Origin: Candidatus Altimarinota bacterium
GTDB taxonomy: Bacteria > Patescibacteriota > Gracilibacteria > UBA4473
Assembly (NCBI GenBank): GCA_965231215.1
Contig: OZ246423.1
Span: forward strand, 32,001 to 96,000
Direction: 5' to 3'
Length of the DNA: 64,000 bases
The translations under genes and the position numbers were made by a program. The stretch's first letter is position 1. Every line of letters begins with the position of its first letter. Positions 35,461 to 60,959 of the stretch are shown here, in pieces. The notes under the pieces are model-generated. The model was not told where the DNA came from, did no database searches, and saw only the letters and a program-made list of their open reading frames with translations.

Positions 35461-35925
35461 TTGACAAAACAAAGAAAAAATAATAAAAAGATAAAGATGA
35501 GATTTATTTATTATATGGAAAACACTGGCGGCGGGTTTAATAGTGGTGGAGACCACCGCTCTCCTAAAGATATACCCGATTATATAGGTATGGGAGAAAG
35601 CCATTTTAAAAAAATATCAGAAGACAATGCTCGTTTAATAAAAGAGGTTTTAGAAGACAAGATTGCAAAAAATTTTCCTGAAACCTTATCCAGAATTACA
35701 CCTTTAGAATCAACTATAAACAGGCTTATCCATGAAGCCTTAGGGGGCCCCAAAAGTTTAACTGAATCTATACGCGATCAAATTCAAAAAACTATTCGGA
35801 CACCAGAACATAATATTGAAAAGATTATATCAGACGCTAAAAAAACTACAGGCATGGCAAGCCATTTTGTAGCCTATATGGTGGCGTATTTTTTACATGA
35901 AATGTCCAAAACTAAAAAATCCTAA
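35461..35925 (+). CDS. Hypothetical protein with RFIY N-terminal motif
   Basis: 154-aa ORF, with an alternative ATG start at 35497 (MRFIYY). Confidence 0.55.
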   Translation: MTKQRKNNKKIKMRFIYYMENTGGGFNSGGDHRSPKDIPDYIGMGESHFKKISEDNARLIKEVLEDKIAKNFPETLSRITPLESTINRLIHEALGGPKSLTESIRDQIQKTIRTPEHNIEKIISDAKKTTGMASHFVAYMVAYFLHEMSKTKKS

Positions 35926-36896
35926 TACAAATAATCCCGCTTGTTTTGGTTATGTTCTTCTAAAGTTCTACCAAAGTGAATCTGTCCAGTAGGATCATGC
36001 AGGTAATAATAGAACTCGGTATCTACCGGGTAAGTAGCAGCTTTTAGAGATTCTAGTCCAGGATTAGAAATGGCGGTTGGCGGCAACCCTAATTTTCGAC
36101 GAGTATTATAGGGTGAATCTGTTTCAAAATCAGCTGCATAAAGGGGACCTTTCCAGTCATTTTTTTCATATCGAGTGGTCGCATCTATACCTAAAGGAAT
36201 GCCTTCATCCAGGCGTTTCCAGATAACCCCAGAAATTTTTTGTTTTTCTTCATAACTATCCCCAAAAGCTTCACGCTCAATCATAGAAGCCACTATCACT
36301 ACGGCCTCTAGACTTCTACCATTTTTATTAATATCAGCTTTAAGCGCGGCTATTTTTTGCTGAAACGTTTTATAGAGTTGGGCAATAAAACGTTTAGAGG
36401 TAAACCCCTCATACGCAACAAAATAGGTAGAAGGAAACAAATATCCCTCCAAAGTAGGAATTCTGAATCCTAAATCACACTGGTTTACACATGCGTTAAA
36501 GGCCCCTACTTCAGTTAACCCTTTTTTGGCTAGAAGGGAGTCAATCTGATCTACCGTATAGCCTTCTGGAATAGTAATTTTGATTTCGGCAGAGCGCCCA
36601 TTTTGTAATACTTCAACTAACTCAGAAAAAGTAAGGTTTTTTTGCAGAATATATTCTCCTGCCTGAAGTTTATTCCCCAGCCCTTGATAGGTCACAAACC
36701 AACGAAAAACCAAAGGATCGGCAATAAGTTCTTTGTCTTCTAATATTTGGACAATACGCTTCAGGCTACTGCCTGGTTTGATTTCAACTGGCACACGAGC
36801 GGTAGAATCAGAATTGGGTCTATCCCAGTGATATAAAACTCTACCACCAAAGTAGAGACAAGCCAGCAATAAAACAAAAACTAAATACTTTTTCAT
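35922..36896 (-). CDS. mltG: Endolytic transglycosylase MltG
   Basis: ITIPEG, LEGYLFP.TY, ASMIERE, SPYNT..GLPPTAISNPG and YYYLH motifs. Confidence 0.93.
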   Translation of the reverse strand: MKKYLVFVLLLACLYFGGRVLYHWDRPNSDSTARVPVEIKPGSSLKRIVQILEDKELIADPLVFRWFVTYQGLGNKLQAGEYILQKNLTFSELVEVLQNGRSAEIKITIPEGYTVDQIDSLLAKKGLTEVGAFNACVNQCDLGFRIPTLEGYLFPSTYFVAYEGFTSKRFIAQLYKTFQQKIAALKADINKNGRSLEAVVIVASMIEREAFGDSYEEKQKISGVIWKRLDEGIPLGIDATTRYEKNDWKGPLYAADFETDSPYNTRRKLGLPPTAISNPGLESLKAATYPVDTEFYYYLHDPTGQIHFGRTLEEHNQNKRDYLY

Positions 36897-36909
36897 TGAT
36901 TGTTGTGAG

Positions 36910-37038
36910 ACAAAAATTTCTTACAAATTATTTTGGACGAGGCCGTAAGAAAAAATTTTAATGAGCAATAATAGTATTACCTATTGTGAATGAATTTTTT
37001 TGAGAATAACAAAGCCCAAGATTATTTGCAGGAATTTT
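36910..37038. repeat. Palindromic intergenic repeat family B, copy 2
   Basis: gacgaggc...aaaaatttt...gagcaata...tattgtga...aatttttt...aacaaagc imperfect hairpin. Confidence 0.4.
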
Positions 37039-37039
37039 A

Positions 37040-37327
37040 CTACATTCCCATACCTCCCATAATGTGTTTCATCTTTTCAGCCGCTACTTGTTGCGCTTTT
37101 TTGAAGGCTTTATTACAAGCTTCCATAAAAGATTTTTCAAGTTTTCGCGGATCAGACAAGATAGCCTCATCTAGGATTTCTACTTTTACAATTTCTTGCT
37201 CTCCCGTAACGGTTACTTTTACACCGCTAGCCTCAGAAAAGATGTGAGTATTAGCGAGCTCTTTTTTAATTTTTTTAGCTTCTTTTTGGAGCTTGTACAT
37301 GTCTCCCATTTGTCCGAACATTCCCAT
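37040..37327 (-). CDS. YbaB/EbfC nucleoid-associated protein
   Basis: GVKVTVTGEQEI pattern, 95 aa, Met/Gly-rich ends. Confidence 0.88.
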   Translation of the reverse strand: MGMFGQMGDMYKLQKEAKKIKKELANTHIFSEASGVKVTVTGEQEIVKVEILDEAILSDPRKLEKSFMEACNKAFKKAQQVAAEKMKHIMGGMGM

Positions 37328-37403
37328 GATTTTTGTAGGTTAGATTTTAAACAATTCGCCCTCATAGTAATCCCCTCTTTTTTTTTGTAAAATTTTGTGA
37401 TGA

Positions 37404-39374
<1,971 letters not shown>

Positions 39375-39379
39375 AAAGC

Positions 39380-39530
39380 ACGGGTTGAAACCTAAGGTTT
39401 CCCCCGTGAGCCCCCTTCCTGAAAATATATTATTTAATTAATGAGTGAGTTTAAGGTCTCGTGGTTTCCTTAAACGAACGAATACAAATTTCAGGGGGAT
39501 AACATAAGGGGGAGCATCCCCCTTATGACA
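39380..39530. repeat. Intergenic repeat family C, copy 1 (also acts as a terminator region)
   Basis: Shares aggtctcgtggttt and a ggata...ggg..ccc hairpin with 46225-46305. Confidence 0.5.
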
Positions 39531-40394: not shown

Positions 40395-40420
40395 AAGCGA
40401 TCTTATTGTACTAAAGATAA

Positions 40421-40455
40421 AAAAAAACTCGAGACTGAAATTGCCTCGAGTTTTT
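40421..40455. terminator. Rho-independent terminator
   Basis: aaaaaactcgag...ctcgagttttt hairpin. Confidence 0.7.
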
Positions 40456-40476
40456 GTTTAAAACTTTTTAAAGCGT

Positions 40477-43400
40477 TTATTTTGGTGCAGCAGCACCATC
40501 ATTTCCATCATTTCCATCTCCATCATTTCCATCTTTATTATGAACTAGCACTCCATCAGCATAAAAAGTATGGTATTGAGACACTTTACTAAGATTATAC
40601 GTTTGAACTTCACCTTCAACGTAGTCAACAGATTTGAGTTCTACCGATCCTTCTAAGAGTTGAATTACATCCCCAATCTCTAGCATAGCCACGCCGAGTT
40701 GATGATCTTCCTCTGTTTTTTGTGGATCAAGCGAAGCCCAAGTCTGAGTCCCATCTGCCTTAGTTACGTATACTGGATGCTCTGAAGTAACTCGTAAAAG
40801 ATCATTGTTGAATTTGTAGTATCCTTCCCTTACTGGTGTTTCAAGTTTCAAGACTTGTGCCATAACAGTTTCACCATTTTTTTCGTTATAAGCCAGAACT
40901 TCATCTCCCAATATTATGTCTTCAATCTTTTTAATACTCTGGTCTGCCATCGTAATTTTGGTTCCAGCGGGAAAACAACAAGGTTCAGGTTTTGGACGTT
41001 TACGTGGTGTACACGGTTCACGAGTATCCTCTGCAGGTCCAAGAGGCTTTCCATTTTTGAACTTTCTTTCCCACCAAGTTTTTGTTCGTCTACTACAAAA
41101 CCTTGCATATTTAATTTTATCATCTTTTTTTTCTTTAGGCTTACTAGGCTTACTAGTTTTCTTGGGACATTCGACACCAGTACTAATCCATTTCCCCCAT
41201 GATCCCCAAGTACCTTTGCGAGTTTTACAACGAGTTCTTTTGCACCAGAAACCATTTCTACAAACTCGTTGTGTTTGACAAACTCGACCTTTTCTCCGAA
41301 CTTCTTTAGTTTTTGGTTTTTTAGAAGTTTTTGGTTTTTTAGAAACTCTTTTAACGACTTCTACTCTTGATTTTTTAGAAACTCTTTTAACGACTCTTGG
41401 TTTTCTGGGTTTTACTGGTTTTGGACTAGAGTATGGCGCTCCGTATTTTTCAAGGGGGATAACAATAAGGTTTCCTTCACATCCATTATCCATTTGAGCA
41501 ACCAACATAGTCACTCCATTTCTTCGTGAAATAGTCACGTTTTTAAGGGTAAAGTCTCCAGCTGTTTCCAAACTCATATCATTCCATCTATCTCCTTTCC
41601 CCGTTAAAACATGAAGCCGTTTTCCAGCAATACTACCGTATTCTTTTCCCCCGATCGTAATTGCACCATTTTTAAGCCATTCTCCAACACTTGCTGTCGT
41701 TCCTCGGTTCATATCTCTTTCTAGACCAGCTTTAGAGTTCGGGCCTTGTAGCGATTGAGCGGCTCCAAGAAGCCCTCGTTCAACAAAGTAACTTCTGGTA
41801 TCTCTTCCTTTGGCTTGAGCAATAGCTTTCTTAACCACTACATTATTGTTTAATTGTTCCATTATTTTTACCATGAGCGCTTGAGCTTCTGGCGTAGCCC
41901 CTATTCCCATTTTTTCTACTCGATATACAAGATATTGAGCGACTCGATTACGCCCATCAAGGCCACCAGCTTGATCAAGTCTTGTCATAGCTGCTAGACC
42001 ATCAATGTCTTTAACTCCTGCGGTCGTAATAAGGCTATCAATTTTAGCTTTAGTAGCCGCTGGAATATTTTCACTACTTCGGGCAATAACCACTTCTGTT
42101 TCATATTTTTCTAGAATTTTGGCTAATCTTCCATCTTTTCCAGCGGTCTTGATAGCCTCACGAGTTTTCGGCCCAATTTTGGCGTCTACACCTCCCGTAT
42201 CAAGACCTTCTTTATTAAGTTCTTTTTGTACAAATTTAATAAATTCTGTACGTTTTGGTCCTCGCATAAGACTGACCCTGCTTTTAAAATCAGCAAGCGT
42301 TACATCTCCGTATTCAATTTTTTCAGTGGTTGGAGCGACCGTATCTACTTGATCTTTAGTCGTAGGAGTAGTAGTATCTACTGGATTGACTTTAGTAGTG
42401 TCATTTCCAAGTTTCTCAGTAATCCTTTGGATAGCGGCTTCTACAGCTGCACGGGTTTTTTTGCCAACTTTACCATCGATATCATCGGCCTCATTCCCAG
42501 AATCACTTAGTTTAAATCCTTGTTCTCGGAGCCATCTTTGAGCTTCTTTCACAGAACCTTCTGTTGGAAGCTCTTTAATGCCTTTTAGTTCTTCTAGTTT
42601 TTCTTTTAGTTTTTCTTTTGGAGTATTCTTGAGATATTCATCAAAATTCCCTCCTGTACTTACTACTTCAGAAGCCACTGCACCAGAACCTTCTAAGGTT
42701 TTAATAGCGGCTTCAAGTTGAGTAATCCATTCAAAGTTATAATACTCTACTTCAGGGAAATCTTTTTGTTTATCAGCGCTTAGACTATTATATCCCTCTT
42801 GATAAGCTTCAAGAGCTGCTTTAAGTTCCGCTACATCGGCACTTACTACCTTAACATTTTCTTCGTTAATTATATTTTGAATAACCACACGCTTCTTTGC
42901 GTCTACTCTTGTATATTTTTTCAAAAGTTCTTGTGAGAGGTCAATAAGTTTATTCTCAATATTTTTAATATTTTTAACATTTTTTATAATTTCATCCGAT
43001 TCATAGGCATCAATTTTTTCTTTTAGTGGTAGCAGTTCCGTTAGTACAGAAAAAGAATCAAGCTGAGAATCCTTAAATTCTCCATTAGCCAAATTAAAAG
43101 CCACAATCGCATTATAAGCCTCTTGATAAAGAAACTTAGCTGTTTTAATATTGTCTTTATGAATTTTTTCCAAAAATTTATCTTGAGTAGCTTTTATTTG
43201 TTTTTCAGCCTCTCCTCTCAAGGTTTGAAGTTCTTCAAGCTTTTCTTTTGGAATTTCTGATCTATCTCTACTATCACTCGGAGTTGCCTCTTTAAATTCT
43301 GATGCCTTGGCAGAGATAGAAAAAATACTTTTTCTCTCTTCTGCAAACTTAGCTTCTTCGTGAAGTTTTTCAGTTTCTAGTTGTAGAAAGGTCTGTAGTT

Positions 43401-43716
43401 CTTTAAGGTTCTTAAATCCTAATGCTTCAAATTCTTTTCGAGTTAGTAACACGTCTTGATCTGGCATCCAGGAACGATCAAAGCTAATTTTGATATTAGA
43501 AGTCCCTGATTCACGAGAAACAGTCACACCAGAATTTCCAGACCAATCATCTACATCTAAATTTTTAAGGTCTACTAGTTCTCTAATCCGATCTAATAAA
43601 TTATTCCGAGCTTCTTGACCCCCTGGAGTTACTTCTTGGCCAGATTCATGACCTGAGTCTAGAGTTTTGAAAATAAATTTAGTACCCTCGAAATCGGCAT
43701 TGCATAGAAATTTCAT
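40477..43716 (-). CDS. Large protein with two peptidoglycan-binding (PG_binding_1-like) motifs, a Cys/Lys/Arg-rich region and a C-terminal Hint domain
   Basis: VKEAQRWL..G...DGKVGKKTRAAV and VQKELN..G...DAKIGPKTREAI; Hint CFPAGTKITMAD...VTSEHP...TYNL...FYADGVLVHN. Confidence 0.8.
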   Translation of the reverse strand: MKFLCNADFEGTKFIFKTLDSGHESGQEVTPGGQEARNNLLDRIRELVDLKNLDVDDWSGNSGVTVSRESGTSNIKISFDRSWMPDQDVLLTRKEFEALGFKNLKELQTFLQLETEKLHEEAKFAEERKSIFSISAKASEFKEATPSDSRDRSEIPKEKLEELQTLRGEAEKQIKATQDKFLEKIHKDNIKTAKFLYQEAYNAIVAFNLANGEFKDSQLDSFSVLTELLPLKEKIDAYESDEIIKNVKNIKNIENKLIDLSQELLKKYTRVDAKKRVVIQNIINEENVKVVSADVAELKAALEAYQEGYNSLSADKQKDFPEVEYYNFEWITQLEAAIKTLEGSGAVASEVVSTGGNFDEYLKNTPKEKLKEKLEELKGIKELPTEGSVKEAQRWLREQGFKLSDSGNEADDIDGKVGKKTRAAVEAAIQRITEKLGNDTTKVNPVDTTTPTTKDQVDTVAPTTEKIEYGDVTLADFKSRVSLMRGPKRTEFIKFVQKELNKEGLDTGGVDAKIGPKTREAIKTAGKDGRLAKILEKYETEVVIARSSENIPAATKAKIDSLITTAGVKDIDGLAAMTRLDQAGGLDGRNRVAQYLVYRVEKMGIGATPEAQALMVKIMEQLNNNVVVKKAIAQAKGRDTRSYFVERGLLGAAQSLQGPNSKAGLERDMNRGTTASVGEWLKNGAITIGGKEYGSIAGKRLHVLTGKGDRWNDMSLETAGDFTLKNVTISRRNGVTMLVAQMDNGCEGNLIVIPLEKYGAPYSSPKPVKPRKPRVVKRVSKKSRVEVVKRVSKKPKTSKKPKTKEVRRKGRVCQTQRVCRNGFWCKRTRCKTRKGTWGSWGKWISTGVECPKKTSKPSKPKEKKDDKIKYARFCSRRTKTWWERKFKNGKPLGPAEDTREPCTPRKRPKPEPCCFPAGTKITMADQSIKKIEDIILGDEVLAYNEKNGETVMAQVLKLETPVREGYYKFNNDLLRVTSEHPVYVTKADGTQTWASLDPQKTEEDHQLGVAMLEIGDVIQLLEGSVELKSVDYVEGEVQTYNLSKVSQYHTFYADGVLVHNKDGNDGDGNDGNDGAAAPK

Positions 43717-43894: not shown

Positions 43895-44428
43895 CTACGG
43901 CACAATATTCAACCACACAAAGTCAGTCCAATCACCTCCTGAAACCCCCTCTGAACCAGTCGCACAATTCATAGAAGTCACATTTTTGGCCTGATTTATA
44001 GCTCCCTGTGTACCATCAAAAATAAATCCAGCTCCCCCAGTTCCCGTATCATTTTCTTTCTTCGTAATAATAATAAATTCTTCGTTATTAGCCACTCTTG
44101 CCTGATATCCATAAAGGTAACAGTGCCCATCAGTAAATTCTGGAAGATTATAATCTTGGTTATCCATCCGAGACTTAAAATCACTTACCGTTACCAGATC
44201 CAGGGCTCCAAAAATTCCATCCCCATCTAAATCAGCAAAGTTAACCTGGTCTGAGATAAATTCATCAGATTTAATAATAATAGTCGCATTCCTAATGACA
44301 CTCAACCGAGAAGCATCATTAGCACTAAAAACATGGTTATGAAACGTAGCTACCCCCATTGATGAAAGGATTCCCGTAATCACAATGGTCACCAGCAACT
44401 CTACAAGTGTAAATCCCCTTTTAATCAT
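43895..44428 (-). CDS. Type IV pilin-like protein
   Basis: Prepilin motif KRG|FTLVELLVTIVI. Start placed at ATG 44428. Confidence 0.88.
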   Translation of the reverse strand: MIKRGFTLVELLVTIVITGILSSMGVATFHNHVFSANDASRLSVIRNATIIIKSDEFISDQVNFADLDGDGIFGALDLVTVSDFKSRMDNQDYNLPEFTDGHCYLYGYQARVANNEEFIIITKKENDTGTGGAGFIFDGTQGAINQAKNVTSMNCATGSEGVSGGDWTDFVWLNIVP

Positions 44429-44468
44429 TACGCAGATTTTACACACATATTAACATAAAACAAGTTCA

Positions 44469-44501: not shown

Positions 44502-44524
44502 TAGATTTAAACAATAATTTTAAA

Positions 44525-45052
44525 TTATTCGTTCAAAATTTGAATATCATAGGTAGCTACAGAGTTAATAGTTCCTGAACCAGCTGTACTTTCTGTAACG
44601 TTAACAATACCGCCTGTTCCATCACATAGAGTATCAGCCGTGATATCAGCCACAGCTCCGGCTGTACCATCAACAATGGGTGTTCCGCTGTTTTCTTCAC
44701 TACAAGTAAAGAAAGCAAACTGGTCAGCACCGTTGTTTACGTAAACGTAAGTGTACCCAGTAGTACTAGCCGCCGGCACAGAGTATCCTCCTTCGCTGAA
44801 GAGAGTCCCTTCAACCGATCCAGCGGTAGTCGTGTCTCCTTCGGCAATATCGAAGCTAGTAATAGTATTAACTGCACGGGCAGTTTTAAGAAGCGTAGCC
44901 ATGTTTCGAATGGCAGCTTGTCGTTCTGAATCACGAGCTTTCTTGAAGTAACCAGAGAAAGTCGCAACAGAGATAGTTGCTAGGATACCGATGATCACGA
45001 TAACCACGAGCAACTCAATAAGGGTGAATCCTTTTTTTGCTTGTGTTTGCAT
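44525..45052 (-). CDS. Type IV pilin (probable major pilin)
   Basis: KKG|FTLIELLVVIVIIGILA...KARDSER, a C-terminal Cys pair and its own terminator. Confidence 0.92.
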   Translation of the reverse strand: MQTQAKKGFTLIELLVVIVIIGILATISVATFSGYFKKARDSERQAAIRNMATLLKTARAVNTITSFDIAEGDTTTAGSVEGTLFSEGGYSVPAASTTGYTYVYVNNGADQFAFFTCSEENSGTPIVDGTAGAVADITADTLCDGTGGIVNVTESTAGSGTINSVATYDIQILNE

Positions 45053-50808: not shown

Positions 50809-50840
50809 TGTTTCGGCTTTGTCGCAAACAAGCAAACAAT

Positions 50841-51547: not shown

Positions 51548-52390
51548 CTAAGCTATAGATTGTCCCAAAATAGCCGCAGCACGTTTGTAATCGGCCATTT
51601 TCAAATGAACCCCATCACTACGGTTGCGCATACCTTGGTATGGATTCACAAATTGAATACCCGATTCTTGAGCCAGAGCTGCATACTGTTGATTAAGCGC
51701 ATTAACCGCTCCCTGCTTCCCTCCTTTAACCATAGGCGGAACCGCTACAAGTGTGATTTGAACCCCATTAGATTTTGCAATTTCAATAGCTCTCTTGGCA
51801 TGAGCCACTGCCTGGCTCGCTCCATCAGCCATAATATTGTTAGTTCCAAAACACCAGAAACAGTGTCCAGGTAGGTTTCCAGAGCGTGCATCTTGCTCTA
51901 ACTGAGCAAGCCCAAATGAGCTCGTCGCCCCATTTTTGGCTGATGATGATTGCTCCCCCAATCCGCGAGCATGAGAATCTCCATAAATCCTCGCCTCGCT
52001 TAATTTTGCTCTAGCTTTTTTCTCCTCAGGACCATTCATTTTTGGGATATTTTTACCTGAAACCGTTTTATCTTTTGTATTTTTAACACTTGGTCCAGCA
52101 TTTGTAGTATTGCCTAAAGCGGTAGAGGTATTTGAGTCTGAATTAGCCTTTCTACCAGTAAGCATAGCCATAAGATTTCTTAGCATTTCCCCTAAACTTC
52201 CTAAACTTGACCCAAGCCCTTCAAACTCTTTTCCCGCCTCTCCCTTTAAAGCTTCTCTTATAACTGGCGCTTTTCCAGAGCGAACAAGCCTCCTCCCTAG
52301 CGTATGTATTTTAGTGGGAGAAATCTCATCTCCAGTGGGGATTAGGGAGTCTATAGTACTTTTAAAATCTGGGTTTTGACGGAGAGCCAT
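51548..52390 (-). CDS. SGNH/GDSL hydrolase-domain protein
   Basis: Blocks YGDSH, NG, FGTNN and DGVH, preceded by an amphipathic helix (LGEMLRNLMAMLTG) and a polar linker. Confidence 0.8.
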   Translation of the reverse strand: MALRQNPDFKSTIDSLIPTGDEISPTKIHTLGRRLVRSGKAPVIREALKGEAGKEFEGLGSSLGSLGEMLRNLMAMLTGRKANSDSNTSTALGNTTNAGPSVKNTKDKTVSGKNIPKMNGPEEKKARAKLSEARIYGDSHARGLGEQSSSAKNGATSSFGLAQLEQDARSGNLPGHCFWCFGTNNIMADGASQAVAHAKRAIEIAKSNGVQITLVAVPPMVKGGKQGAVNALNQQYAALAQESGIQFVNPYQGMRNRSDGVHLKMADYKRAAAILGQSIA

Positions 52391-52402
52391 TATAAAAAAA
52401 TT

Positions 52403-52675: not shown

Positions 52676-52677
52676 GG

Positions 52678-52992
52678 CTAAAGGGTAGATAACATATCAT
52701 CAAGTTCTTGTTCTGCACTGGATATTTCCTTAATACGGATTTTTTCTTCCTCTTCTACAATCCGTTTAAGGGCTTCGTGAATAGCCATATTTTCTAAGTC
52801 GGCAAAAAAGTGAGGGTTTTTCTCTAAGATTTTCCTAAAAAGATCCGTTTGTTTTTCATCCATTTGCCGCAAAATAGGCAAAATTTCAGCCTGAGTTTGG
52901 TTGTCGGCTTCCATTACCTGGATTTTAATATCCTTCGCCAGAAACAAGTTTCTGGACAGTAGCTCTTCGATTTCGTTAATAATTTCACTCAT
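52678..52992 (-). CDS. Small helical protein, paralog of 54627
   Basis: EIEELLSRNL..IL..D.KQT...ILEKNPHFF..LE aligns with 54627 (EILELLNRNL..IL..DQKQT...ILKEDPYFF..LE). Confidence 0.8.
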   Translation of the reverse strand: MSEIINEIEELLSRNLFLAKDIKIQVMEADNQTQAEILPILRQMDEKQTDLFRKILEKNPHFFADLENMAIHEALKRIVEEEEKIRIKEISSAEQELDDMLSTL

Positions 52993-53064
52993 AATATCTT
53001 CTTATTGTAACACAAAAAACACTTTTTTTCTAGTGAAAAATAATTCAGTACAACATAAAAAAAA

Positions 53065-53093
53065 TTTACAAAACAATAAAAAGGTGCTATTAT
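53065..53093 (+). promoter_or_regulatory. Sigma-70 promoter (divergent region)
   Basis: TTTACA-N17-TATTAT with extended TG. The opposite strand has TGtTACAAT before ATG 52992. Confidence 0.55.
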
Positions 53094-53112
53094 TATCAGA
53101 AATAAAAATAAC

Positions 53113-54540
53113 ATGACTAAAGAAAAAAGAAATCAACCTAAAGCTGCTCCTGCAAAAAAACCTTCAAAAAAGGTAGGTGTAAAAAAAGAAGTAGCCAGAG
53201 CCGCTAAAGGCCCGGCTAGAGGAAAACTAAGGAGAATAGTTCGAATGAATCCAGATGAAAAAAAGTTAGCTGGAACCCTTAGCCTAAAACTTAAGAAAGG
53301 TAAGAGAGAAGGCAAACCTTTAGTGCTAGCCCAAGCTCGAACAGGCAAAAAAGACGTCGTAGAAAGAACAGAGAAAGCTAAAGTTGAAAAACCTTTAAGC
53401 GCTGAAAAAGCTACTTCTGTTTTTAGAGAGCCAGAAAGTAAAATTGTTACTAACCCCGACATAGAGGAAGCGGTAGTAAAAAGTTTTAAAGAAGATTCTT
53501 TTGAAACTAAGGGGCTTACTGAAGCTGAAATTAAAAGCGAAGTTGAAGACCGGGTTATCAGAGCCAAAGCCGAACAAATAGGTGAAAGAGTTCTTATCCC
53601 TGGTAAAGAAGGCAAACCAGGCATGACTGAAGGTCAATACATTGAAAAACTAGCAAAAGACCATGATATAGACCCAAATACACTGCTTATTGCTCGAGCA
53701 AAAAACCAAGCAGGAATAGGCGCAGAAGTAGACAAAGAAAATACTATCACAGACCCTGAAGCTTACAAACAATCGCTTGAAACCTTTGCTCAAAATTTCA
53801 AAAAAGCGCAAGACTATATTGCTGCTAATAAAGACCTAATAGCCCAAAACCCAGATATTCAGGCTAGAGCTATGGCTATATTACAAGGCAAAGACCCAAA
53901 TGATCTATCACCAGAAGCTCAAGCAAAACTAAGAACCCAAATCGCAACAGACGAAAGACTTGGAGAACAGTTTTCTACTCTCAATCGAATGACCACTGGA
54001 AATACTTCTTCACTCAATAATATCGGAAGTGGGATTGGAACTGTATCTCTAGATCCAGCTGATCTAAACGCTACTCCCCCACTTGATCAAAAAAAATACG
54101 CCCCTGGTAGCGCTGAAGCTCAACAGCTTTTTGCCAAAGCTGCAAGAGACAACGGCATGCCAGAAGAATGGGGCAAATCACCAGGACTTCATTCTGTACT
54201 GGGAAAAGAATCAGGGGGAATTGTCGGAAGACTCAACTATACATTCAAAGCTGTAGCTAAAAGAATGGGAACTTCAGTTGACGATCCTAAATTTGTAGGT
54301 TGGGTACACGGAAAACTACGATCTGGAGCCTCTGCTAAAGATTTCGGAATCCGTTCAACCGCTACAGGACTAGGACAACTGCTTATTGGGAACGTAAAAA
54401 AACACTACCCAGGTGGGATCAGCGAAATTGGGAAACCCGAAGGTGAGGCAGCAGGAATGCTGGCTTACATGAAGTCCCGTTATGGCACTCCTGACAATGC
54501 GGCTGCCAAGTATGGAAAAATGGGGCACGAAGGGTACTAA
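53113..54540 (+). CDS. Putative effector with C-terminal lytic transglycosylase (SLT/GH23-like) domain
   Basis: C-terminus has LF..AA...G.P..W...KESGG...STATGLGQL...GMLAYMKSRYG. Also carries the shared DIDPNTLL scaffold. Confidence 0.75.
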   Translation: MTKEKRNQPKAAPAKKPSKKVGVKKEVARAAKGPARGKLRRIVRMNPDEKKLAGTLSLKLKKGKREGKPLVLAQARTGKKDVVERTEKAKVEKPLSAEKATSVFREPESKIVTNPDIEEAVVKSFKEDSFETKGLTEAEIKSEVEDRVIRAKAEQIGERVLIPGKEGKPGMTEGQYIEKLAKDHDIDPNTLLIARAKNQAGIGAEVDKENTITDPEAYKQSLETFAQNFKKAQDYIAANKDLIAQNPDIQARAMAILQGKDPNDLSPEAQAKLRTQIATDERLGEQFSTLNRMTTGNTSSLNNIGSGIGTVSLDPADLNATPPLDQKKYAPGSAEAQQLFAKAARDNGMPEEWGKSPGLHSVLGKESGGIVGRLNYTFKAVAKRMGTSVDDPKFVGWVHGKLRSGASAKDFGIRSTATGLGQLLIGNVKKHYPGGISEIGKPEGEAAGMLAYMKSRYGTPDNAAAKYGKMGHEGY

Positions 54541-54588
54541 AAAACATCTAAAAAACAGACTTTAAGGCTTTATTTTAAAGCCTATTTG

Positions 54589-54597
54589 TGATATAAT
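54589..54597 (+). promoter_or_regulatory. Extended -10 promoter of the 54627-60959 unit
   Basis: TGaTATAAT 29 nt upstream of ATG 54627. Confidence 0.55.
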
Positions 54598-54626
54598 TGG
54601 GAATCATTTTTCTATTTTTTTGATCA

Positions 54627-54950
54627 ATGGACGCCCTTAAACAGGAAATTTTGGAACTTTTGAACCGAAATCTGGTAATTAGCCCAGAGGTAAGAGAGGA
54701 ACTAGTACAAAATCTAGAAAGCCTTTCTGAACCAAAAATTAAAAAAATTTTGGTAATTCTACGTGACGCAGATCAAAAACAAACCCAAGCTCTAGAAGAA
54801 ATCTTAAAAGAAGACCCCTATTTCTTCCACAAGCTAGAACATGTAATTCTAGAAACAATGGAAGATGAATTTGAAAAACAAGAAATTATTGAACACGAAG
54901 TGGCAGAAAAAGAATTAGAAAATGACCTAGCTAACTTTTCAAAAAAATAA
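54627..54950 (+). CDS. Small helical protein, paralog of 52678
   Basis: Aligns with 52678. First gene of a tightly packed five-gene run. Confidence 0.8.
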   Translation: MDALKQEILELLNRNLVISPEVREELVQNLESLSEPKIKKILVILRDADQKQTQALEEILKEDPYFFHKLEHVILETMEDEFEKQEIIEHEVAEKELENDLANFSKK

Positions 54951-54960
54951 CATATAAAAC

Positions 54961-56001
54961 ATGAAATTTCATTTAAACCGGCTATCGGAGATTGATCCCC
55001 AATTCTGCTATAAATTCAATGAAAAAGCTCCTCATCCTGGAACACGAAGAGAGAATAACGAAAAAAATGAGAATAGAGCTAAAAAGGTCAAGTCTGATCC
55101 AGAGTCACCAGAAAACATTGGAAAAAAATTAGACCAAATTGGGCACTCTACAAACGATATGCCAGATTTTGTAAAAGGGCCAGCAAAACAAAAACTACAA
55201 AAAACTGTATGCCAAGCATGTAAAGGAAAGATAGATTCTGGTAGTTTAGATAAAGCAATTCATGAAATAGCAACAGATGGAAGCCCAACTGAACAACCTG
55301 GGCAAAGTAAAGAAGGACAAGAAAAACCTCCAGAAGCATTAAGTAAAGCTCAAAAAGAAGAAATCAAAAAATATTTAGAAGCAAAACTAAAAGAGGTCGA
55401 AAACTTAAAAAAGAAGTACGAACAATATAGAACTAAAGGAGAGATCGACAAAAATGATCCAGGTGAAATAGAGATGGAAAAACGCTTCCAAAAAGCAAAG
55501 ACTTCTTTTAATAGTGCATTAAGTGATGTTAATAATTTTCCAGAAAAAGAGGGAGCAGAAAGCAACTCAAATCAAAGTGATGCAGTAGCAACTGGAAAAG
55601 AAGCTCTAGGAAAAAAAGAAGGAGCTGAAGTTGATGCATGGCTTAGATCAAAAGGTGTTGAATGGAATAGTGCAAAAGATCCTTGGTGTGCTGTTTTTAT
55701 ATCAGCCTCAACAGGTACAGATGTAACTAACGGAGTTCAAGCTGGAGCATTAAATCTACCAAAAGCTGCCGGAGGGAAAGAGATTGCTATGTCTGAAGTA
55801 AAAGGCAAAGCAACCTTAAGTGGGAATAGCTCAAATACAGTTAGATCTGGACGTGTAGAAGGCTTCACAAAAGCTTATGAATTAAAAGATGGAACTAAAG
55901 TAGTAACTAAAGAAAGAGGTGATCCTGGAAGTGGAAAAGGACATATAGAAATGGTAGATGAAGGTGGTGAGGCAGGTGAAGCTACTACTAGCATGGCCTA
56001 A
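54961..56001 (+). CDS. Putative effector with rearranged TIGR02594/CHAP-like Cys-His peptidase domain
   Basis: ALGKKE...DPWCAVFI...RGDPGSGKGHIE in the C-terminus; N-terminal MKF...QFCYK. Confidence 0.6.
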   Translation: MKFHLNRLSEIDPQFCYKFNEKAPHPGTRRENNEKNENRAKKVKSDPESPENIGKKLDQIGHSTNDMPDFVKGPAKQKLQKTVCQACKGKIDSGSLDKAIHEIATDGSPTEQPGQSKEGQEKPPEALSKAQKEEIKKYLEAKLKEVENLKKKYEQYRTKGEIDKNDPGEIEMEKRFQKAKTSFNSALSDVNNFPEKEGAESNSNQSDAVATGKEALGKKEGAEVDAWLRSKGVEWNSAKDPWCAVFISASTGTDVTNGVQAGALNLPKAAGGKEIAMSEVKGKATLSGNSSNTVRSGRVEGFTKAYELKDGTKVVTKERGDPGSGKGHIEMVDEGGEAGEATTSMA

Positions 56002-56009
56002 ATAAAACA

Positions 56010-57545
56010 ATGTCAGAAACACCAAAAGGGTATGAAAGAAGTAAAGTTCACGGTGATATCACCGCAGGACTAGAACAGCTAAACGGTGACTACCTCAAAA
56101 ACGAGATGAAATGGGGACGTCTTTCTGGTTCTGAATACGCCCAACATCACGGGATTGAAGTAAAAGAAAAACTACCTCAAGCCACCTTTGATAAAGTCTG
56201 GAACAAACGAATAAACAGCCAACCTACGGCTAAAAAAGATATTGCTGACTTCAATGGTTTTTATATTAATCCAGAATTCAAAAAAGAAATCTGGAATCGA
56301 ATTGAACATACCTTTGATAGTCAAAAATTTCTTTTGGATCAGGCTTTTGCCTCTGAAAATGCAGACTTTGAAAAAACCCTCAAAGACCTCAAAGAACAAC
56401 TTCAAAAAGAAAACAAATCTCCAAAAGAAATTACTGGATCTCTCAATGCCAAAAGAGAAGATCTCATTGCCCAAAAACAGAAAACTCCGGAAGAAAGACA
56501 AGCGTTAATAGATCAAAAATTCCCAGGGAAAAAAGCTCAAGAATCAGTAGAAAAAGAAGTGCTTAGACGAATTGAAGAACACGCTAAAAGACTCAAACTT
56601 GATAGTCTTCATGACAGCAATAACTTAGGATTAAAAGGCAAAGAGGGCGGAGAGCTTAGTGAAGCTGACTATCTAGATGCCATCGCTAAAGATAAAAAAA
56701 TTGATCCTGATGTGCTTTTGGCCGCCAGAACTATGAATCTAGGAGGCTTTGGATTGGATCAAGATTTAGGAAAATTCAAAAACGCAGAAGCATACAAAAA
56801 ACACGTAGAAGAATTTGTGAACCGAATGGAAGAAGCCAAAAAGCTAAAATCGACAGACCCAGCTCAGCTTCTAGAGTTCCTCAAAACTGGTAAAAAACCA
56901 TCTACTACTACCAATAATACCGAAGCAGCGCCCCAAAGACGACAAATCAATACTCTCTGGGACCTTATTAAACTCCTCTTAGAATTTATTAGCGGAGGCG
57001 AGGAAGGAAACTTTGATTTCTTAGGTAACAATAACGGAAGTGACTATGTCAACGGAATTAACTACAACCAAACGCCTAAAAATGCCGATGGACGAGCTAC
57101 TCCAGAATTTGCCAGAAAAGCTGCAGAAAAAGCCTCAGGAAAAGGACAAGCTATACTCAACACCGCTCTAGGAGAGCTAAATACCCATGAAGTTCGAAAT
57201 AGTGGCAGAGTAAGAGAATATCATAAATCTGTATTCGCTAGAGGGGCTTCACCAACGGGTACCCCTTGGTGTGGCTCTTTTGTAAGTTGGGTACTACAAA
57301 AAAATGGAGTTAACGCCAAAACGGCTTCATCTAGAGCTTTTTTAGGCATGGGACAAGCCGTTTCCTCTTCTCAAGCTCAACCAGGAGATATCGTAGTTGT
57401 AGCTAGAGGTGGTGGTGGTCATGTTGGATTTTTTATTGGGTGGGATCCAAAAGGAAAACCTATTATTGTAGGAGGAAACCAAGGCAATAAAGTTTCTATC
57501 AAAACCGAACGGCGAACCTTACTTGGGATAAGACGAATCGGATAA
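56010..57545 (+). CDS. Putative effector with C-terminal TIGR02594/CHAP (NlpC/P60 superfamily) peptidoglycan peptidase
   Basis: A.GEL..HE, TPWCGSFVSWVL, PGDIVV..RG.GGHVGFF and GGNQGNKV motifs. Carries the shared scaffold KIDPDVLL...GFGL. Confidence 0.85.
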   Translation: MSETPKGYERSKVHGDITAGLEQLNGDYLKNEMKWGRLSGSEYAQHHGIEVKEKLPQATFDKVWNKRINSQPTAKKDIADFNGFYINPEFKKEIWNRIEHTFDSQKFLLDQAFASENADFEKTLKDLKEQLQKENKSPKEITGSLNAKREDLIAQKQKTPEERQALIDQKFPGKKAQESVEKEVLRRIEEHAKRLKLDSLHDSNNLGLKGKEGGELSEADYLDAIAKDKKIDPDVLLAARTMNLGGFGLDQDLGKFKNAEAYKKHVEEFVNRMEEAKKLKSTDPAQLLEFLKTGKKPSTTTNNTEAAPQRRQINTLWDLIKLLLEFISGGEEGNFDFLGNNNGSDYVNGINYNQTPKNADGRATPEFARKAAEKASGKGQAILNTALGELNTHEVRNSGRVREYHKSVFARGASPTGTPWCGSFVSWVLQKNGVNAKTASSRAFLGMGQAVSSSQAQPGDIVVVARGGGGHVGFFIGWDPKGKPIIVGGNQGNKVSIKTERRTLLGIRRIG

Positions 57546-57549
57546 AAAT

Positions 57550-59235
57550 ATGAAGTTTATATATCAACAGAAACTAAAAACAAACTATCGGTTTATCTAT
57601 CAAGAAAAACCGGAAGATAGCCCTGAAGAAAACAACAACAAAGAAAATCTAAATGATGTCATAGAAGACATAGAAGCTTTCTTAGCTGAAAAAACTAAGA
57701 CAAAAAAAAATACACCACTTCCAGACGAATTAGTTCAGCGATTTATAGAAGCTTCAAAAGGTTCAAAAGTGGAAGACTTAGCAAAACTTATTACTGACCC
57801 AAAAATAGGTAGAGGAAAAGAAAGAGTTGAATATGTCATTAAACGACAAAAATTTGAAGAAGCCTGGAAAAAACTTTCTGAAAAGACTGATAGTGTAAAA
57901 ATAAACCCAGAACTCAAAAACCAAGAAACCGCTCGAATTATGCATGAAGTTATAAGCGGTATTTCTTTAGATGAATTTAATGATCCTGCAAAGCTTGAAA
58001 AAGCTATAAAAAACACCATTGCCAATGAAAGGGTAAAAGAATTCAATCAAACCAGGGCCGACAACGGTGAAAAAATTAATCCTGCAACAGATATTGATGA
58101 AAATGGAAAAATTAAAACCCCAACCCTTGCTGATAAAATTGCTGAGGTAGCTAAAAAACACAAACTAGATAGTCACCTACTTGCGCGTAGTGCCGCGTTA
58201 AACTTTGATAATTTTGGTTTAGATAAAGATGGGAATATACTATCAGAACATCATGGTGAGATTTTTGAAAAAAACCTAGAATCTCTAGCTAAAAAAATTA
58301 AAGAAACAATGAAAAAAACTGACATAGACCCAAAGAAGGCAGAAGAATTAAAGAAAAAACTTGGTTCTAACCCAACTCAACAACAAATCAACAACGCTAC
58401 TGACCAAGCAGTTTCTAGCTACAGTGGTGACAAACCAAGAACTCTCTGGGATTTGATTCAGGCTTTATTAGAATTCGCTAACATGGGGATTGGTGGGCGG
58501 AATCCTAACGATAAAACTCACGGCACTGTAAATGCTGGCCCAAATAGAGTCAGGTATGACCAAGGAACAGCCAGAAATCTGGACGCAGCGTATGAAAAAC
58601 TACAAAAAATAGATCCCAAAACCAATGAGCTTAAACTCAGTGATCAGTGGAAAGAAAAGCTAACGGCTAAATTTGGTGGTCAAATTGAATCCGTCACCAA
58701 TTACCTCAAAAAATTTCCAACCAAATGGCAGGGAGCCGGAGCCGAGTTTTTATTCAAACTAGGGCGTATTCCTGCAGACAATAAAACTATTGGGATTGCC
58801 AACGTTAAAGGGGGAATGGCCTTAGCTGTATACCCAGACGGAAAAGTCCATGAATTCCCTATTATTATTGGGAAAAACGGATACTCAGATGGAGCCAGAT
58901 CCGGTGACAAAAAAAGTAATCTTAGACGTATTCAAACCATCGTAGGTGGAAAACTTGTAGGGCGAGGTCAAGATGCCAGCAAAACCGGTTCTAGAACCGT
59001 TGTTGGAGCTGCCTTATATAGCAAAGAAGAGGCTCATACTGGAAAATGGTGGCACGGAGTAGCTGATAACCGTATAGCCGGACGCCGTGGGCGAACCTGG
59101 GGATGTATTGGTGCCAAACAAGAACATATTCAAATGATGGCTCGTACCATGCTTAAAAAAGGTTCTGACGGTAAGGTTCAAGGAGGATACCTGTACCATG
59201 TAGATAGTTACGAAGGAGCCCCTAATAAAGTCTAA
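57550..59235 (+). CDS. Putative effector with C-terminal YkuD-like L,D-transpeptidase/carboxypeptidase domain
   Basis: EFPIIIGKNG...GDKK...WWHG...RTWGCIG (His...Thr-x-Gly-Cys motif). Carries the shared scaffold KLDSHLL...NFGL. Confidence 0.72.
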   Translation: MKFIYQQKLKTNYRFIYQEKPEDSPEENNNKENLNDVIEDIEAFLAEKTKTKKNTPLPDELVQRFIEASKGSKVEDLAKLITDPKIGRGKERVEYVIKRQKFEEAWKKLSEKTDSVKINPELKNQETARIMHEVISGISLDEFNDPAKLEKAIKNTIANERVKEFNQTRADNGEKINPATDIDENGKIKTPTLADKIAEVAKKHKLDSHLLARSAALNFDNFGLDKDGNILSEHHGEIFEKNLESLAKKIKETMKKTDIDPKKAEELKKKLGSNPTQQQINNATDQAVSSYSGDKPRTLWDLIQALLEFANMGIGGRNPNDKTHGTVNAGPNRVRYDQGTARNLDAAYEKLQKIDPKTNELKLSDQWKEKLTAKFGGQIESVTNYLKKFPTKWQGAGAEFLFKLGRIPADNKTIGIANVKGGMALAVYPDGKVHEFPIIIGKNGYSDGARSGDKKSNLRRIQTIVGGKLVGRGQDASKTGSRTVVGAALYSKEEAHTGKWWHGVADNRIAGRRGRTWGCIGAKQEHIQMMARTMLKKGSDGKVQGGYLYHVDSYEGAPNKV

Positions 59236-59237
59236 AC

Positions 59238-60959
59238 ATGAAAAATCTAAAAAATCGATTCCAGATTCAGACAAAATTTATTTTTAAACAAAGTGCTACA
59301 GGCCCTGAAACTTCAACCGATACCCCGGAAAAAGCGAACCAAGAAGAGGCTATCCGTAGAGCCTTGGAAAAACATGCTTTAGAAAAAGATTCTGGAAAAC
59401 CTAAAATTTCTGACGAAGATATTAATGCCGGAATCGCTAAATTCATTGCCCTCTTTGAAAATGATAAAATTGATAAAATTGATGAGAAAAAAATTCCTGA
59501 ACTTATAGTAAAAGCGGTCAAAGCCAATGGGAAAGCTAGTGACGTACCGGAATTAGATACCCTTATTAAGAAGGTTATATCTATAAAAAAGCAACAAGTC
59601 TACGAGGCTAAACTCAAAGCTAAATTTGAGCACCCTAAAATGCATGTTTCTTCTGAACTCATGCAGCAAGCCCACCAGGCTGTAATAAAAGGAGATCCGG
59701 ATCTTCCACAAGCCACAATTGAGCAACTAATGGATGCTGAAGGTGACGTGGATAAAATCGATCCAAAATATAAAGACCTTAACCCCGAAGATTTCCTTAA
59801 AAATAAGGAATACATAAAACTTTTAGAGGAAAAAGTATTAGCACTAAAACTTCAAGCCCTTACTGAAAACCGAATAACACTACCAAACAAAACAGAAAAT
59901 AATGAAAAAACCGAAGCTGAAATTATCACCGGAATAGCCACAACTTTTGGCGTAGATCCAGAACTTTTGATGAACTACAGAGTGAGAAACACTGACGGAT
60001 TCGGTCTTAACTTTGAAAACGTAGAAGAGCAAGATGTAAAAAAATACATCGAAGAAATTGAGGCTGCAGCTTATAATCTCAAACAAGCCAAAGCTAAAGA
60101 AGAAAAAAAACAAACTGAACTTGAGCAGCTTATAAAAACTAAACCTAAAAATCCGACTGAAACTATTAAAAAAATAAAAGAACTCAGCAAAGATTTAAAT
60201 TTGGGAAAAGATAAAGATAAAGTAAATGATAAAAGTACCCAGATAGGCCAATCTGTGACACAAGCCAGAGAAGGATATAAAGATGAATTCTATTCACTTT
60301 ATGATTTTATAATGGATCTCTTAAATGCTGTTGGGTATCGTCCAGGCAAGGAAAAACCAAAACAAAAAGAAGGTGAAAGCAATGCTGACTATCAAAAAAG
60401 GCTTGAAGACTGGCAAAAAAAGCAAAAAACAAAACAAACTAACTACCGAAACAATTGGTCTTCTCAGCCCAATTCACCCGCTGATACTAAAGGAATTGAA
60501 GCTCCAAACGGAAGTGCCGTACAAAAGGCTATCGCTGCCGCTAATGCCGGGAATATATTAGGGGCAAAACACTGTACTGATTGGGTTTCTAAAGTATACG
60601 GTGTGAGTGTTCATAGTCTCAGAAAAGTACAATTTTCTGGCGCCACAAATAAACATGGAGACTTTGTAACCAAAGTAGGACGTGGTACAGGACTTGCTGG
60701 TAACGGTGGAGCGAGTGTAGAAGATATTAACAAAATGCCAGCAGGAACCCATATTATGATTGACCATTGTCGAGGTGGGTCTTGTGGCCAAGGAAAAACC
60801 CATAGTGCTATTCTTCTAGAACAACCTTCAAATGGAAAAGCTCGAGTGGCCAGTTATCCAGGGGGAGGAAAAAAACCAAGAATTGAAAACTACACCTTTA
60901 GCCAAAACGGATCTGGAAATTCTAAAAGAGTCATCCGAGCTCATTACCCTCCTTCCTAA
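59238..60959 (+). CDS. Putative effector with C-terminal NlpC/P60-like Cys-His amidase/peptidase domain
   Basis: HCTDWVSKVY...PAGTHIMI...THSAIL. Carries the shared scaffold GVDPELL...GFGL. Confidence 0.65.
   Translation: MKNLKNRFQIQTKFIFKQSATGPETSTDTPEKANQEEAIRRALEKHALEKDSGKPKISDEDINAGIAKFIALFENDKIDKIDEKKIPELIVKAVKANGKASDVPELDTLIKKVISIKKQQVYEAKLKAKFEHPKMHVSSELMQQAHQAVIKGDPDLPQATIEQLMDAEGDVDKIDPKYKDLNPEDFLKNKEYIKLLEEKVLALKLQALTENRITLPNKTENNEKTEAEIITGIATTFGVDPELLMNYRVRNTDGFGLNFENVEEQDVKKYIEEIEAAAYNLKQAKAKEEKKQTELEQLIKTKPKNPTETIKKIKELSKDLNLGKDKDKVNDKSTQIGQSVTQAREGYKDEFYSLYDFIMDLLNAVGYRPGKEKPKQKEGESNADYQKRLEDWQKKQKTKQTNYRNNWSSQPNSPADTKGIEAPNGSAVQKAIAAANAGNILGAKHCTDWVSKVYGVSVHSLRKVQFSGATNKHGDFVTKVGRGTGLAGNGGASVEDINKMPAGTHIMIDHCRGGSCGQGKTHSAILLEQPSNGKARVASYPGGGKKPRIENYTFSQNGSGNSKRVIRAHYPPS

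Follow-up and report, generated by a model that had tools for sequence, protein, structure and literature searches.

We found that a conserved peptide of about 20 residues (here called the tag) lies at the very start of a set of otherwise unrelated proteins from a Candidatus Altimarinota bacterium. Four of these proteins are encoded in the stretch of DNA analyzed here, which we refer to as the window (64,000 nucleotides; G000:C1:32001-96000, where G000 is the genome); gene positions are those of the window unless G000 is stated. The tag is real. Its place at the first residue is fixed, its protein sequence stays conserved where the rest of each protein diverges, it precedes C-terminal domains that are unrelated to each other, and it is nearly confined to one family of Patescibacteria. 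Judging from sequence patterns, we estimate a probability of about one half that it is a Sec-independent export or targeting signal. A more specific and more tentative proposal, possible rather than probable, is that it could be the substrate signal of this family's divergent monoderm-type type IV secretion system (T4SS).

The genome is a single contig of 1,326,059 bp that is 99.3% complete, with 36-41% G+C, and the window reads well with translation table 11. Its family, called f1, uses the standard code and belongs to a class of the Patescibacteria (Candidate Phyla Radiation, CPR) that also holds recoded lineages; in-frame TGA codons are frequent in conserved open reading frames (ORFs) of relatives in the class. 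The nearest ESM Atlas clusters are labelled Minisyncoccota. We compared 401 genomes, 43 from f1 and 358 from other (sister) families of the class. The gene set for G000 consisted of 1222 ORFs from a crude longest-ORF caller. A first profile made from six N-termini was iterated, leading to a 33-sequence profile (A3, used for the genome comparison at E<=0.05) and finally to a 68-seed profile. For a table of residues by position, the aromatic core was anchored in 46 of 48 collected tag sequences.

The four tags in the window, and the proteins that they head, are:

43666..43716, minus strand: tag MKFLCNADFEGTKFIFK, heading the protein 40477-43716 (profile E=9e-8).
40477..43716, minus strand: tagged 1079-residue protein with a pair of PG_binding_1 repeats, a stretch rich in K, R and C, and a Hint domain at the C-terminus.
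54961..55014, plus strand: tag MKFHLNRLSEIDPQFCYK, heading the protein 54961-56001 (profile E=4.4e-9).
54961..56001, plus strand: tagged 346-residue protein whose C-terminal domain matched nothing in Pfam, NCBIfam or the PDB sequences.
57550..57606, plus strand: tag MKFIYQQKLKTNYRFIYQE, heading the protein 57550-59235 (profile E=5.9e-10).
57550..59235, plus strand: tagged 561-residue protein whose central module is common to the untagged paralogues 56010 and 53113.
59238..59288, plus strand: tag MKNLKNRFQIQTKFIFK, heading the protein 59238-60959 (profile E=1.3e-9).
59238..60959, plus strand: tagged 573-residue protein whose C-terminal domain matched nothing in Pfam, NCBIfam or the PDB.

The N-termini of these proteins are those given in the original prediction, made from the letters of the window, that they share a leader motif: MKFLCNADFEGT-KFIFK at 43716 (minus strand), MKFHLNRLSEIDP-QFCYK at 54961, MKFIYQQKLKTNY-RFIYQ at 57550 and MKNLKNRFQIQT-KFIFK at 59238, all starting at ATG. 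A fifth carrier proposed at 35461 did not hold up as well:

35497..35514, plus strand: short form M-RFIYY, doubtful, read from an ATG inside the ORF 35461-35925, which starts with TTG.

The TTG start is needed to place the motif at residue 14. From the ATG at 35497, the motif is at residues 2-6, and the profile gives E=12, with no match at E<=1. Because the profile gives it no backing, we treat this ORF as doubtful. A similar short form, MKFIYREMPG, heads a glucosaminidase ORF in another genome (G010).

The tag follows the pattern M-K-[NFK]-[LIF]-[FY], 7-10 residues, [KR]-[FYW]-[IVC]-[FYW]-[QK], and then a linker rich in P, G, E and D. The consensus of the 46 anchored sequences is M-K-[N/F/K]-L-[F/Y]-[Q/K]-x-[A/S]-[S]-x-x-(N)-T-[K/R]-F-[I/V/C]-[F/Y/W]-[Q/K]-[E/Q], and among the P/G/E/D-rich positions that follow it there is often a G-P-E/D 5-10 residues on. 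The core F was 13-17 residues past M1 in all 46, most commonly 14. These sequences bear out the original placement of the motif at residues 13-18, ahead of a P/E/G/S-rich linker. The start of the tagged ORFs is well defined. The start codon was ATG in 32 of 33; an in-frame stop lay no more than 13 codons upstream in 31; and 29 had no alternative upstream start.

AlphaFold2 modelling of a full-length tagged glucosaminidase protein (8-sequence alignment) left residues 1-35 unstructured, with a predicted local distance difference test (pLDDT) score of ~32, and not docked onto the body of the protein. The predicted disorder is weakly consistent with a short linear motif; it is weak evidence because confidence in the model as a whole was low (mean pLDDT 60.8). 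The beta-strand suggested for the motif in the original prediction did not appear in this model.

Could such a motif arise by chance from AT-rich codon bias, or be a nucleotide-level signal (a translation enhancer or leader RNA) misread as protein? The G+C content of the genome and the commonness of MK starts in all bacteria are in line with this explanation, as is the looseness of the regular expression first used to describe the motif, [KRQ]F[IC][FY]. The expression was enriched at N-termini, with 13 of its 26 matches in the 1222 ORFs falling in the first 30 residues (~10-fold enrichment). However, 4 of these 13 were unrelated, namely a MurC-like enzyme, a homologue of coupling proteins, and two ORFs that were short or encoded membrane proteins; we therefore used profiles. 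Profile A3 had 111 matches in 34 of the 43 f1 genomes. In contrast, it had 21 weak matches in 20 of the 358 genomes from other families, where ~18 genomes were expected by chance. AT-rich N-termini of sister lineages do not give rise to the motif. The f1 matches almost always began at the first position of the profile; outside f1 only 1 of 21 did (MKELFNTLSNISQFFIEKRFVYFESGPG in G128, plausibly a true member). In addition, conservation is at the level of residues and not codons. The cores KFIF, RFIY and QFCY are written with different codons (AAATTTATTTTC, CGGTTTATCTAT, CAATTCTGCTAT), and an Rfam scan found no RNA family at the 5' ends of the tags, two tRNAs being its only matches in the window. 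Codon bias had been raised at the outset as what might account for the motif. The motif survived this comparison: the carriers defined by profile include no housekeeping protein of the cytoplasm, and matches in the sister families, whose composition is similar, stay at chance level. Chance or a misread nucleotide signal now seems highly improbable.

The tag was not recovered by every approach. In an unbiased search for 3-mers and 4-mers enriched at N-termini, words from signal peptides and pilins prevailed. A word-based homologue search with the tagged glucosaminidase protein found only the protein itself. Against 1.84 billion representative proteins, the tag profile had 11 matches at E<=0.001, nearly all of them training sequences; the profile, with 34 positions, is too short for a library of this size. 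Two non-training matches were retrieved; one was a repeat protein, the other a small ORF of repetitive sequence, and we judged both to be unrelated. When the window proteins were scanned, no Pfam or NCBIfam model matched the tag region. A full-text search of the literature on secretion in Patescibacteria/CPR, Gracilibacteria, Absconditabacteria and Peregrinibacteria, and on XVIPCD, found no description of the motif.

With the 68-seed profile, we found 13 clear tagged proteins in G000, about 1% of the proteome. Those outside the window are listed below by their G000 positions. The last two were added by the 68-seed profile, and the others were found with the iterated profiles.

G000 112545: tagged ORF, 553 residues, Pfam Glucosaminidase.
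G000 265818, minus strand: tagged ORF, 54 residues.
G000 425304: tagged ORF, 943 residues.
G000 428201: tagged ORF, 711 residues.
G000 787533: tagged ORF, 150 residues.
G000 1289269, minus strand: tagged ORF, 193 residues.
G000 1291491, minus strand: tagged ORF, 732 residues.
G000 1233132: tagged ORF, 1774 residues.
G000 1064617: tagged ORF, 1635 residues.

The recognizable domains of the carriers all relate to the cell wall or are extracytoplasmic. Pfam searches of 39 tagged proteins found Muramidase (2), PG_binding_1 (2), Glucosaminidase (1), SLT (1), LysM (1), GDSL (1) and a Hint-type domain (1), and no cytoplasmic housekeeping family. In the window, the protein 40477-43716 matched PG_binding_1 (2.8e-11) and has no hydrophobic segment. 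Its Hint match (1.8e-6) was under the curated cut-off and was accompanied by other Hint-type models (AXH, Hom_end_hint, Vint and PT-HINT). The original prediction had assigned peptidoglycan domains to four of five carriers; Pfam backs only this one. Readings that rested on short motifs (57550 as YkuD-like, 54961 and 59238 as CHAP/NlpC-like) were dropped, as the YkuD and NlpC/P60 profiles gave no match. These three proteins, whole or as C-terminal parts, had no match in Pfam, NCBIfam or the PDB sequences. A model of the C-terminal domain of 57550 (AlphaFold2, 3-sequence alignment) was unusable (pLDDT 33).

A shared N-terminus without function could be inherited within one expanding gene family, by paralogy or 5'-end gene conversion. 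There are paralogues among the proteins of the window, and many tagged genes are in tandem arrays. The untagged members of the cluster that includes 54961, 57550 and 59238 are:

51548..52390, minus strand: untagged GDSL-like protein, 280 residues; Pfam Lipase_GDSL_2 (2e-7, slightly under the curated cut-off).
53113..54540, plus strand: untagged paralogue, 475 residues, with a basic N-terminus and no signal peptide.
56010..57545, plus strand: untagged paralogue, 511 residues, with a CHAP/NlpC-P60 domain (Pfam CHAP 5.4e-9; TIGR02594 2.2e-22) and no signal peptide.

The absence of the motif from these three proteins had been stated from the start and was confirmed. The tagged 57550 is a paralogue of 56010 and 53113; it matched the 56010 region at E=4.3e-10, falls in the same BLAST cluster and had no Pfam match. 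The tagged 54961 shares with 56010 just the word PWC..F.S (BLASTP E=0.043). However, inheritance in one family does not account well for the presence of the tag on unrelated domains, or for the loss of the tag from 53113 and 56010, which kept the shared module. It also fits poorly with residues being kept while codons differ. The tag is retained across 20 or more genera while the remaining protein drops to 27% identity or becomes undetectable, as in the G004 homologue of 57550, which is 27% identical overall and retains the tag (MKKLFLYPQNSISRFVYQETGPED). We consider simple inheritance very unlikely to be the explanation.

The tag does not belong to any known class of signal that we tested: Sec, Tat, lipobox, prepilin, double-glycine, LXG and XVIPCD. 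As had been predicted, a hydrophobic h-region is missing. We defined a hydrophobic segment as a 19-residue Kyte-Doolittle window of >=1.6; 29 of 33 tagged proteins had none, and 39% of 1056 G000 ORFs had one. The best 11-residue window in the first 45 residues of the tagged proteins was <=1.76, and mostly <1. The position table has no A-x-A cleavage column, the core being followed by Q/K, E/Q and then P/G/E/D. For Tat, the 46 anchored sequences have no R-R column and no h-region. They lack the invariant Cys of a lipobox, Cys being a minority residue (6/46) at the middle position of the core. The type IV prepilin signal (G|F-T-L-I-E and a hydrophobic helix) was not found in the tagged proteins; two pilins in the window, 43895-44446 and 44525-45052, have it (GFTLVELLV and GFTLIELLV). 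A Gly is common 4-9 residues past the core (15/46 at +8) and is not fixed as in a double-glycine leader, and no ORF in the 99.3%-complete genome matched the C39 peptidase transporter model PF03412. We found no EssC-type ATPase of a type VII system: G000 has a single FtsK_SpoIIIE ORF (782 residues), and the ~20-residue tag is not predicted to be helical. Lastly, the shared element is N-terminal and of ~20 residues, which does not fit XVIPCD. Sec export of wall enzymes is in normal use in this organism, as four M23 peptidases and one YkuD protein in the same genome have ordinary signal peptides or membrane anchors. Thus, the tagged proteins form a separate class.

An intracellular function is another reading: the tag may, for instance, promote degradation or chaperone binding and keep dangerous or costly proteins scarce or unfolded until they are required. 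Basic-hydrophobic-basic cores resemble motifs recognized by proteases and chaperones, and in the tag a hydrophobic patch flanked by basic residues (K/R-F-I/V-F/Y-K/Q) lies within a disordered N-terminus. Nor did we find an export machine specific for the tag. However, the carriers with known domains target peptidoglycan, which is outside the membrane. There were no cytoplasmic enzymes among the 39 proteins scanned or the 13 carriers in G000, and a general degron would be expected on varied proteins. We regard an intracellular role as rather improbable.

If tagged proteins are exported, a T4SS-like apparatus would be the likeliest machine. G000 has a VirB4 homologue (G000 1222119, 786 residues, P-loop_TraG 6.4e-26), five T2SSE-type ATPases, just one FtsK-family protein, and three homologues of coupling proteins (VirD4/TraG-type):

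G000:C1:418427-421486, minus strand: coupling-protein homologue.
G000:C1:532884-535337, minus strand: coupling-protein homologue.
G000:C1:859518-862022, plus strand: coupling-protein homologue.

One of them is 3.8 kb from the tagged pair 425304/428201. One coupling-protein gene adjoins genes for three small proteins with signal peptides, which we read from their sequences as VirB2-like, and a T2SSE-family ATPase (G000 538093-539229).

The tag recurs in an operon that resembles part of such a system:

G000:C1:1227934-1238456 (outside the window): four-gene operon for proteins of 175 residues (two transmembrane [TM] segments), 803 residues, 659 residues (seven TM segments) and 1774 residues.

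Its orthologues (L119-L138) encode a ~175-residue protein with two TM segments, a 550-950-residue protein, a multi-TM protein and a giant protein of 1400-2030 residues. The ~175-residue protein has an invariant W..A.DYHPH.RG motif and is single-copy in 302 of the 401 genomes. The seven-TM protein was found in 42 of 43 f1 genomes; one of 20 orthologues matched TrbL/VirB6 (PF04610, 7.9e-5), and of the 30 named ESM Atlas clusters nearest to it, 26 carry TrbL_3, though in only 13-19% of the members. A search of its profile against PDB sequences found nothing relevant. In passages of a survey of Patescibacteria T4SSs, VirB6 is described as undetectable in Gracilibacteria, "suggesting extreme sequence divergence" (PMC12102498); the multi-TM protein of the operon may be this missing component.

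The 1774-residue operon protein starts MKFLPLFTHSKRTDDSARFLAFAG. Of 20 other genomes inspected, 12 resemble G000 in having an orthologue of the giant protein (1050-2030 residues) encoded immediately after the seven-TM gene, and most of the giants start with a tag-like sequence (MKFL...aromatic triad), for example MKFLRSRFCADPALEKYIFQED, MKFLRDQYLLPENDWKSRVIFM and MKFITNTFRNVESDQWGRFVFM. The second gene of the operon also often has a tag-like start (MKFLFSQISNFKRSLSEGRFVFEN). Tag-like starts in the operon include genera without matches in the profile search. A profile made from 12 giant N-termini, none from G000, placed 5 of 11 independent G000 carriers in its top 20 of 1222 ORFs, where 0.18 were expected; no single E-value was significant. 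These results link the tag genetically to a T4SS-like operon, and the link is circumstantial. Complex prediction for the tag (A3) and the 175-residue protein returned no answer (score 0.00 twice), which is evidence neither way.

Two other loci touch on this system. In a recoded relative, the 175-residue gene is beside two ORFs that we read from sequence as VirB4-N-terminus-like and VirB2-like (the latter small, with two TM segments). At G000:C1:769568-771199, a small membrane ORF that appears PrgI-like is followed by a 244-residue VirB4-N-terminus-like ORF and then, in another frame, a 159-residue ORF that has a tag-like start, MIKKNYRFIYFYRPPSGEE, in its interior. Perhaps a VirB4 locus was broken or split here.

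Known systems offer partial parallels. LXG proteins of type VII secretion systems (T7SS), and MIX, FIX and RIX proteins of type VI secretion systems (T6SS), have N-terminal markers on diverse C-terminal enzymatic domains, and these markers define the substrates of one system. The tag is like them in being a shared N-terminal element on proteins with diverse C-terminal domains. Their markers are folded domains of roughly 100-200 residues that belong to T7SS or T6SS machinery, however, whereas the tag is a short linear motif and G000 has no EssC-like protein. The tag is like a Sec signal peptide, variants of which include YSIRK and KxYKxGKxW, in lying at residue 1 with an M-K start, before the mature domains of wall-active enzymes. 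Unlike a Sec signal peptide, it has no h-region or A-x-A, and its core holds only three hydrophobic residues.

Type IV secretion effectors of Xanthomonadales (X-Tfes) include peptidoglycan hydrolases. Described as the effectors of a bacteria-killing T4SS, they are otherwise unrelated proteins that have the XVIPCD, a domain of ~120 residues, in common at the C-terminus. This recognition element carries conserved motifs and a tail rich in Gln, and it binds the all-alpha domain of VirD4 (PMC8740702). The tagged proteins are similar in sharing one element, in an organism with coupling proteins. Unlike XVIPCD as described there, which is folded and C-terminal, the tag is ~20 residues, N-terminal and predicted to be unstructured, in a monoderm-type Patescibacterium. 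The tag thus seems closest in logic to XVIPCD, by analogy as a shared targeting element on an effector-like cohort. The passages on Patescibacteria T4SSs report that monoderm-type systems with VirB4, VirB3/PrgI-like, VirB6-like, VirB2-like and coupling proteins are widespread (PMC12102498). Neither a substrate signal nor an N-terminal motif common to several proteins is described in those passages. They also report that, in Ca. S. epibionticum, epibiotic growth requires homologues of peptidases and lysozyme that are encoded downstream of virB4 (PMC12102498).

A targeting tag fits the data best because of its N-terminal position, modularity, disorder and linker, its lack of Sec features, its restriction to one lineage and its recurrence in a secretion operon. 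In the model that we favor, a disordered N-terminal motif of ~20 residues, with a flexible P/G/E/D linker, would mark soluble proteins that lack Sec signals, many of them peptidoglycan hydrolases or binders, and these would leave the cytoplasm by a Sec-independent route. The apparatus would include VirB4, the TrbL/VirB6-like channel protein and the three coupling-protein homologues. A cytoplasmic receptor, by analogy a coupling protein, would bind the exposed basic-aromatic core and the unfolded substrate would be handed to the VirB4/TrbL-like channel. Once outside, the hydrolases might act on the cell's own wall or on that of a host cell. The part of the original prediction that calls the motif a secretion signal stands insofar as the motif is conserved, strictly N-terminal, modular, and on proteins without Sec signals whose recognizable domains are wall-active. 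The part that left the secretion route wholly unidentified has to be modified.

Several findings weigh against an export signal, or against the T4SS as its machine. Export of tagged proteins is deduced from sequence patterns, and the type IV signals known so far lie at the C-terminus or internally. No Pfam match was obtained for about 30 of the 39 tagged proteins; since most carriers have no recognizable domain, the description "wall-active" rests on a minority. The proteins 53113, 56010 (CHAP) and 51548, in the same cluster, have neither tag nor signal peptide. Tagged genes that are not in tandem arrays are interspersed with housekeeping genes. The 20 loci compared, each from a different genome, had no recurrent neighbor except a pair of small helical proteins in two genera. 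The other neighbor clusters were polynucleotide-phosphorylase-like housekeeping genes, and none was a candidate machine adjoining tagged genes. We found no partner confined to f1. The 175-residue protein was considered as one and rejected, being present across the class (302 of 401 genomes), and the TrbL-like protein is also in f1 genomes without matches to the tag profile. At E<10, profile A3 matched only 3 of 13 giant N-termini (E 0.18-6.6).

Glucosaminidases provide a further point of this kind. In f1, 6 of 7 glucosaminidase ORFs start with variants of the tag (for example MNHFYNTFRKTHDWGCFVYQ and MKNFFQFNTNTSGTFLFLEG), and the seventh (G051) has neither tag nor signal. In the sister families, 5 of 22 have a hydrophobic N-terminus. 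The other 17 have no hydrophobic N-terminus, no signal peptide or anchor, and no such tag; thus, the tag is not needed for export across the class. Wall hydrolases without signals seem to be a trait of the whole class to which f1 adds a defined tag, and their occurrence supports the existence of a non-Sec route. The N-termini of the sister-family ORFs (L089-L118) are conserved within families: MA[HN]PE[IL].V... in f22, and MA.P...P... in f24 and f14. ORFs from f22, f11 and f30 (L089-L096, L104, L107 and L111) contain 3-11 in-frame TGA codons and are clean with translation table 25. In two f24 genomes, we found no tag of their own shared by the hydrolases and the large protein of the operon.

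These findings bear on another explanation: the tag may be a retention or docking handle that acts after export and holds hydrolases at a contact site, with export itself by other, class-wide means. The partner might be a wall polymer, the S-layer, the giant protein of the operon, or a pilus of the VirB2-like or type IV kind. Export does seem independent of the tag in the 17 sister-family glucosaminidases, the long flexible linker is tether-like, and two pilin genes adjoin 40477-43716. However, a handle need not always occupy residue 1, and the tag does so in 46 of 46 sequences. Furthermore, tiny tagged proteins (54-69 residues), with an orthologue in another genus, hold little else to tether. 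We think that a docking role is unlikely. One such tiny ORF, at G000:C1:265654-265818 (minus strand, 54 residues), has an acidic tail, EDEEDWEDEDY, after the tag and a 64-residue orthologue in another genus (L012, G009). It is likely to be a real tagged protein.

Other features of the window lie near the tagged genes. The helical pair mentioned above is:

52678..52992, minus strand: small acidic helical protein, paralogue of 54627-54950, heading the hydrolase cluster.
54627..54950, plus strand: second small helical paralogue, immediately upstream of the tagged gene 54961.

The two are ~105 residues long, divergently placed and without a Pfam match, and have in common the motif NL.L...NP.FF. 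The family has seven members in four loci from two genera (among the loci are L066, L067 and L068). These proteins could be chaperones, regulators or immunity proteins. In two sister species, longer GDSL proteins of the equivalent cluster bear the tag (N-termini of L066_5678 and L067_15292). Six proteins of hydrolase clusters (from 53113-60959 and at G000 112545 and 1289293) share a central word, A..[HK]..DP.LL.A......FG[LA]. To our eye the word recalls the start of a lytic-transglycosylase domain, but the catalytic Glu-Ser is missing. In 40477-43716, the K/R/C/W-rich stretch is ~150 residues and the protein ends in GNDGD repeats, with no toxin domain beyond Hint; the layout resembles that of a polymorphic toxin without its tip. 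Further away, a 1670-residue protein (4894-9906, minus strand) has a signal-like segment at the N-terminus, long repeats that resemble coiled coils and, in its C-terminal part, the lipase-type motif GHSLGG.

Little is understood of how Patescibacteria attack their host bacteria, attach to them and feed on them. T4SS genes are widespread among them and essential in one species tested, and the substrates and their signal are undefined. If the tag is a T4SS signal, it would be the first such signal that is short, linear and N-terminal. Sequence alone would then define the whole effector set that these ultrasmall bacteria transfer to host cells, onto their surface or into them: about a dozen proteins per genome, comprising wall hydrolases, a Hint-domain protein, giants and tiny peptides. 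The tag yields a list of candidate effectors in 34 genomes and a peptide bait for the receptor. It also offers an explanation for a puzzle of the class, that most glucosaminidase-type wall enzymes have no Sec signal. As a portable export signal, if it is one, it could be used to send cargo out of these bacteria.

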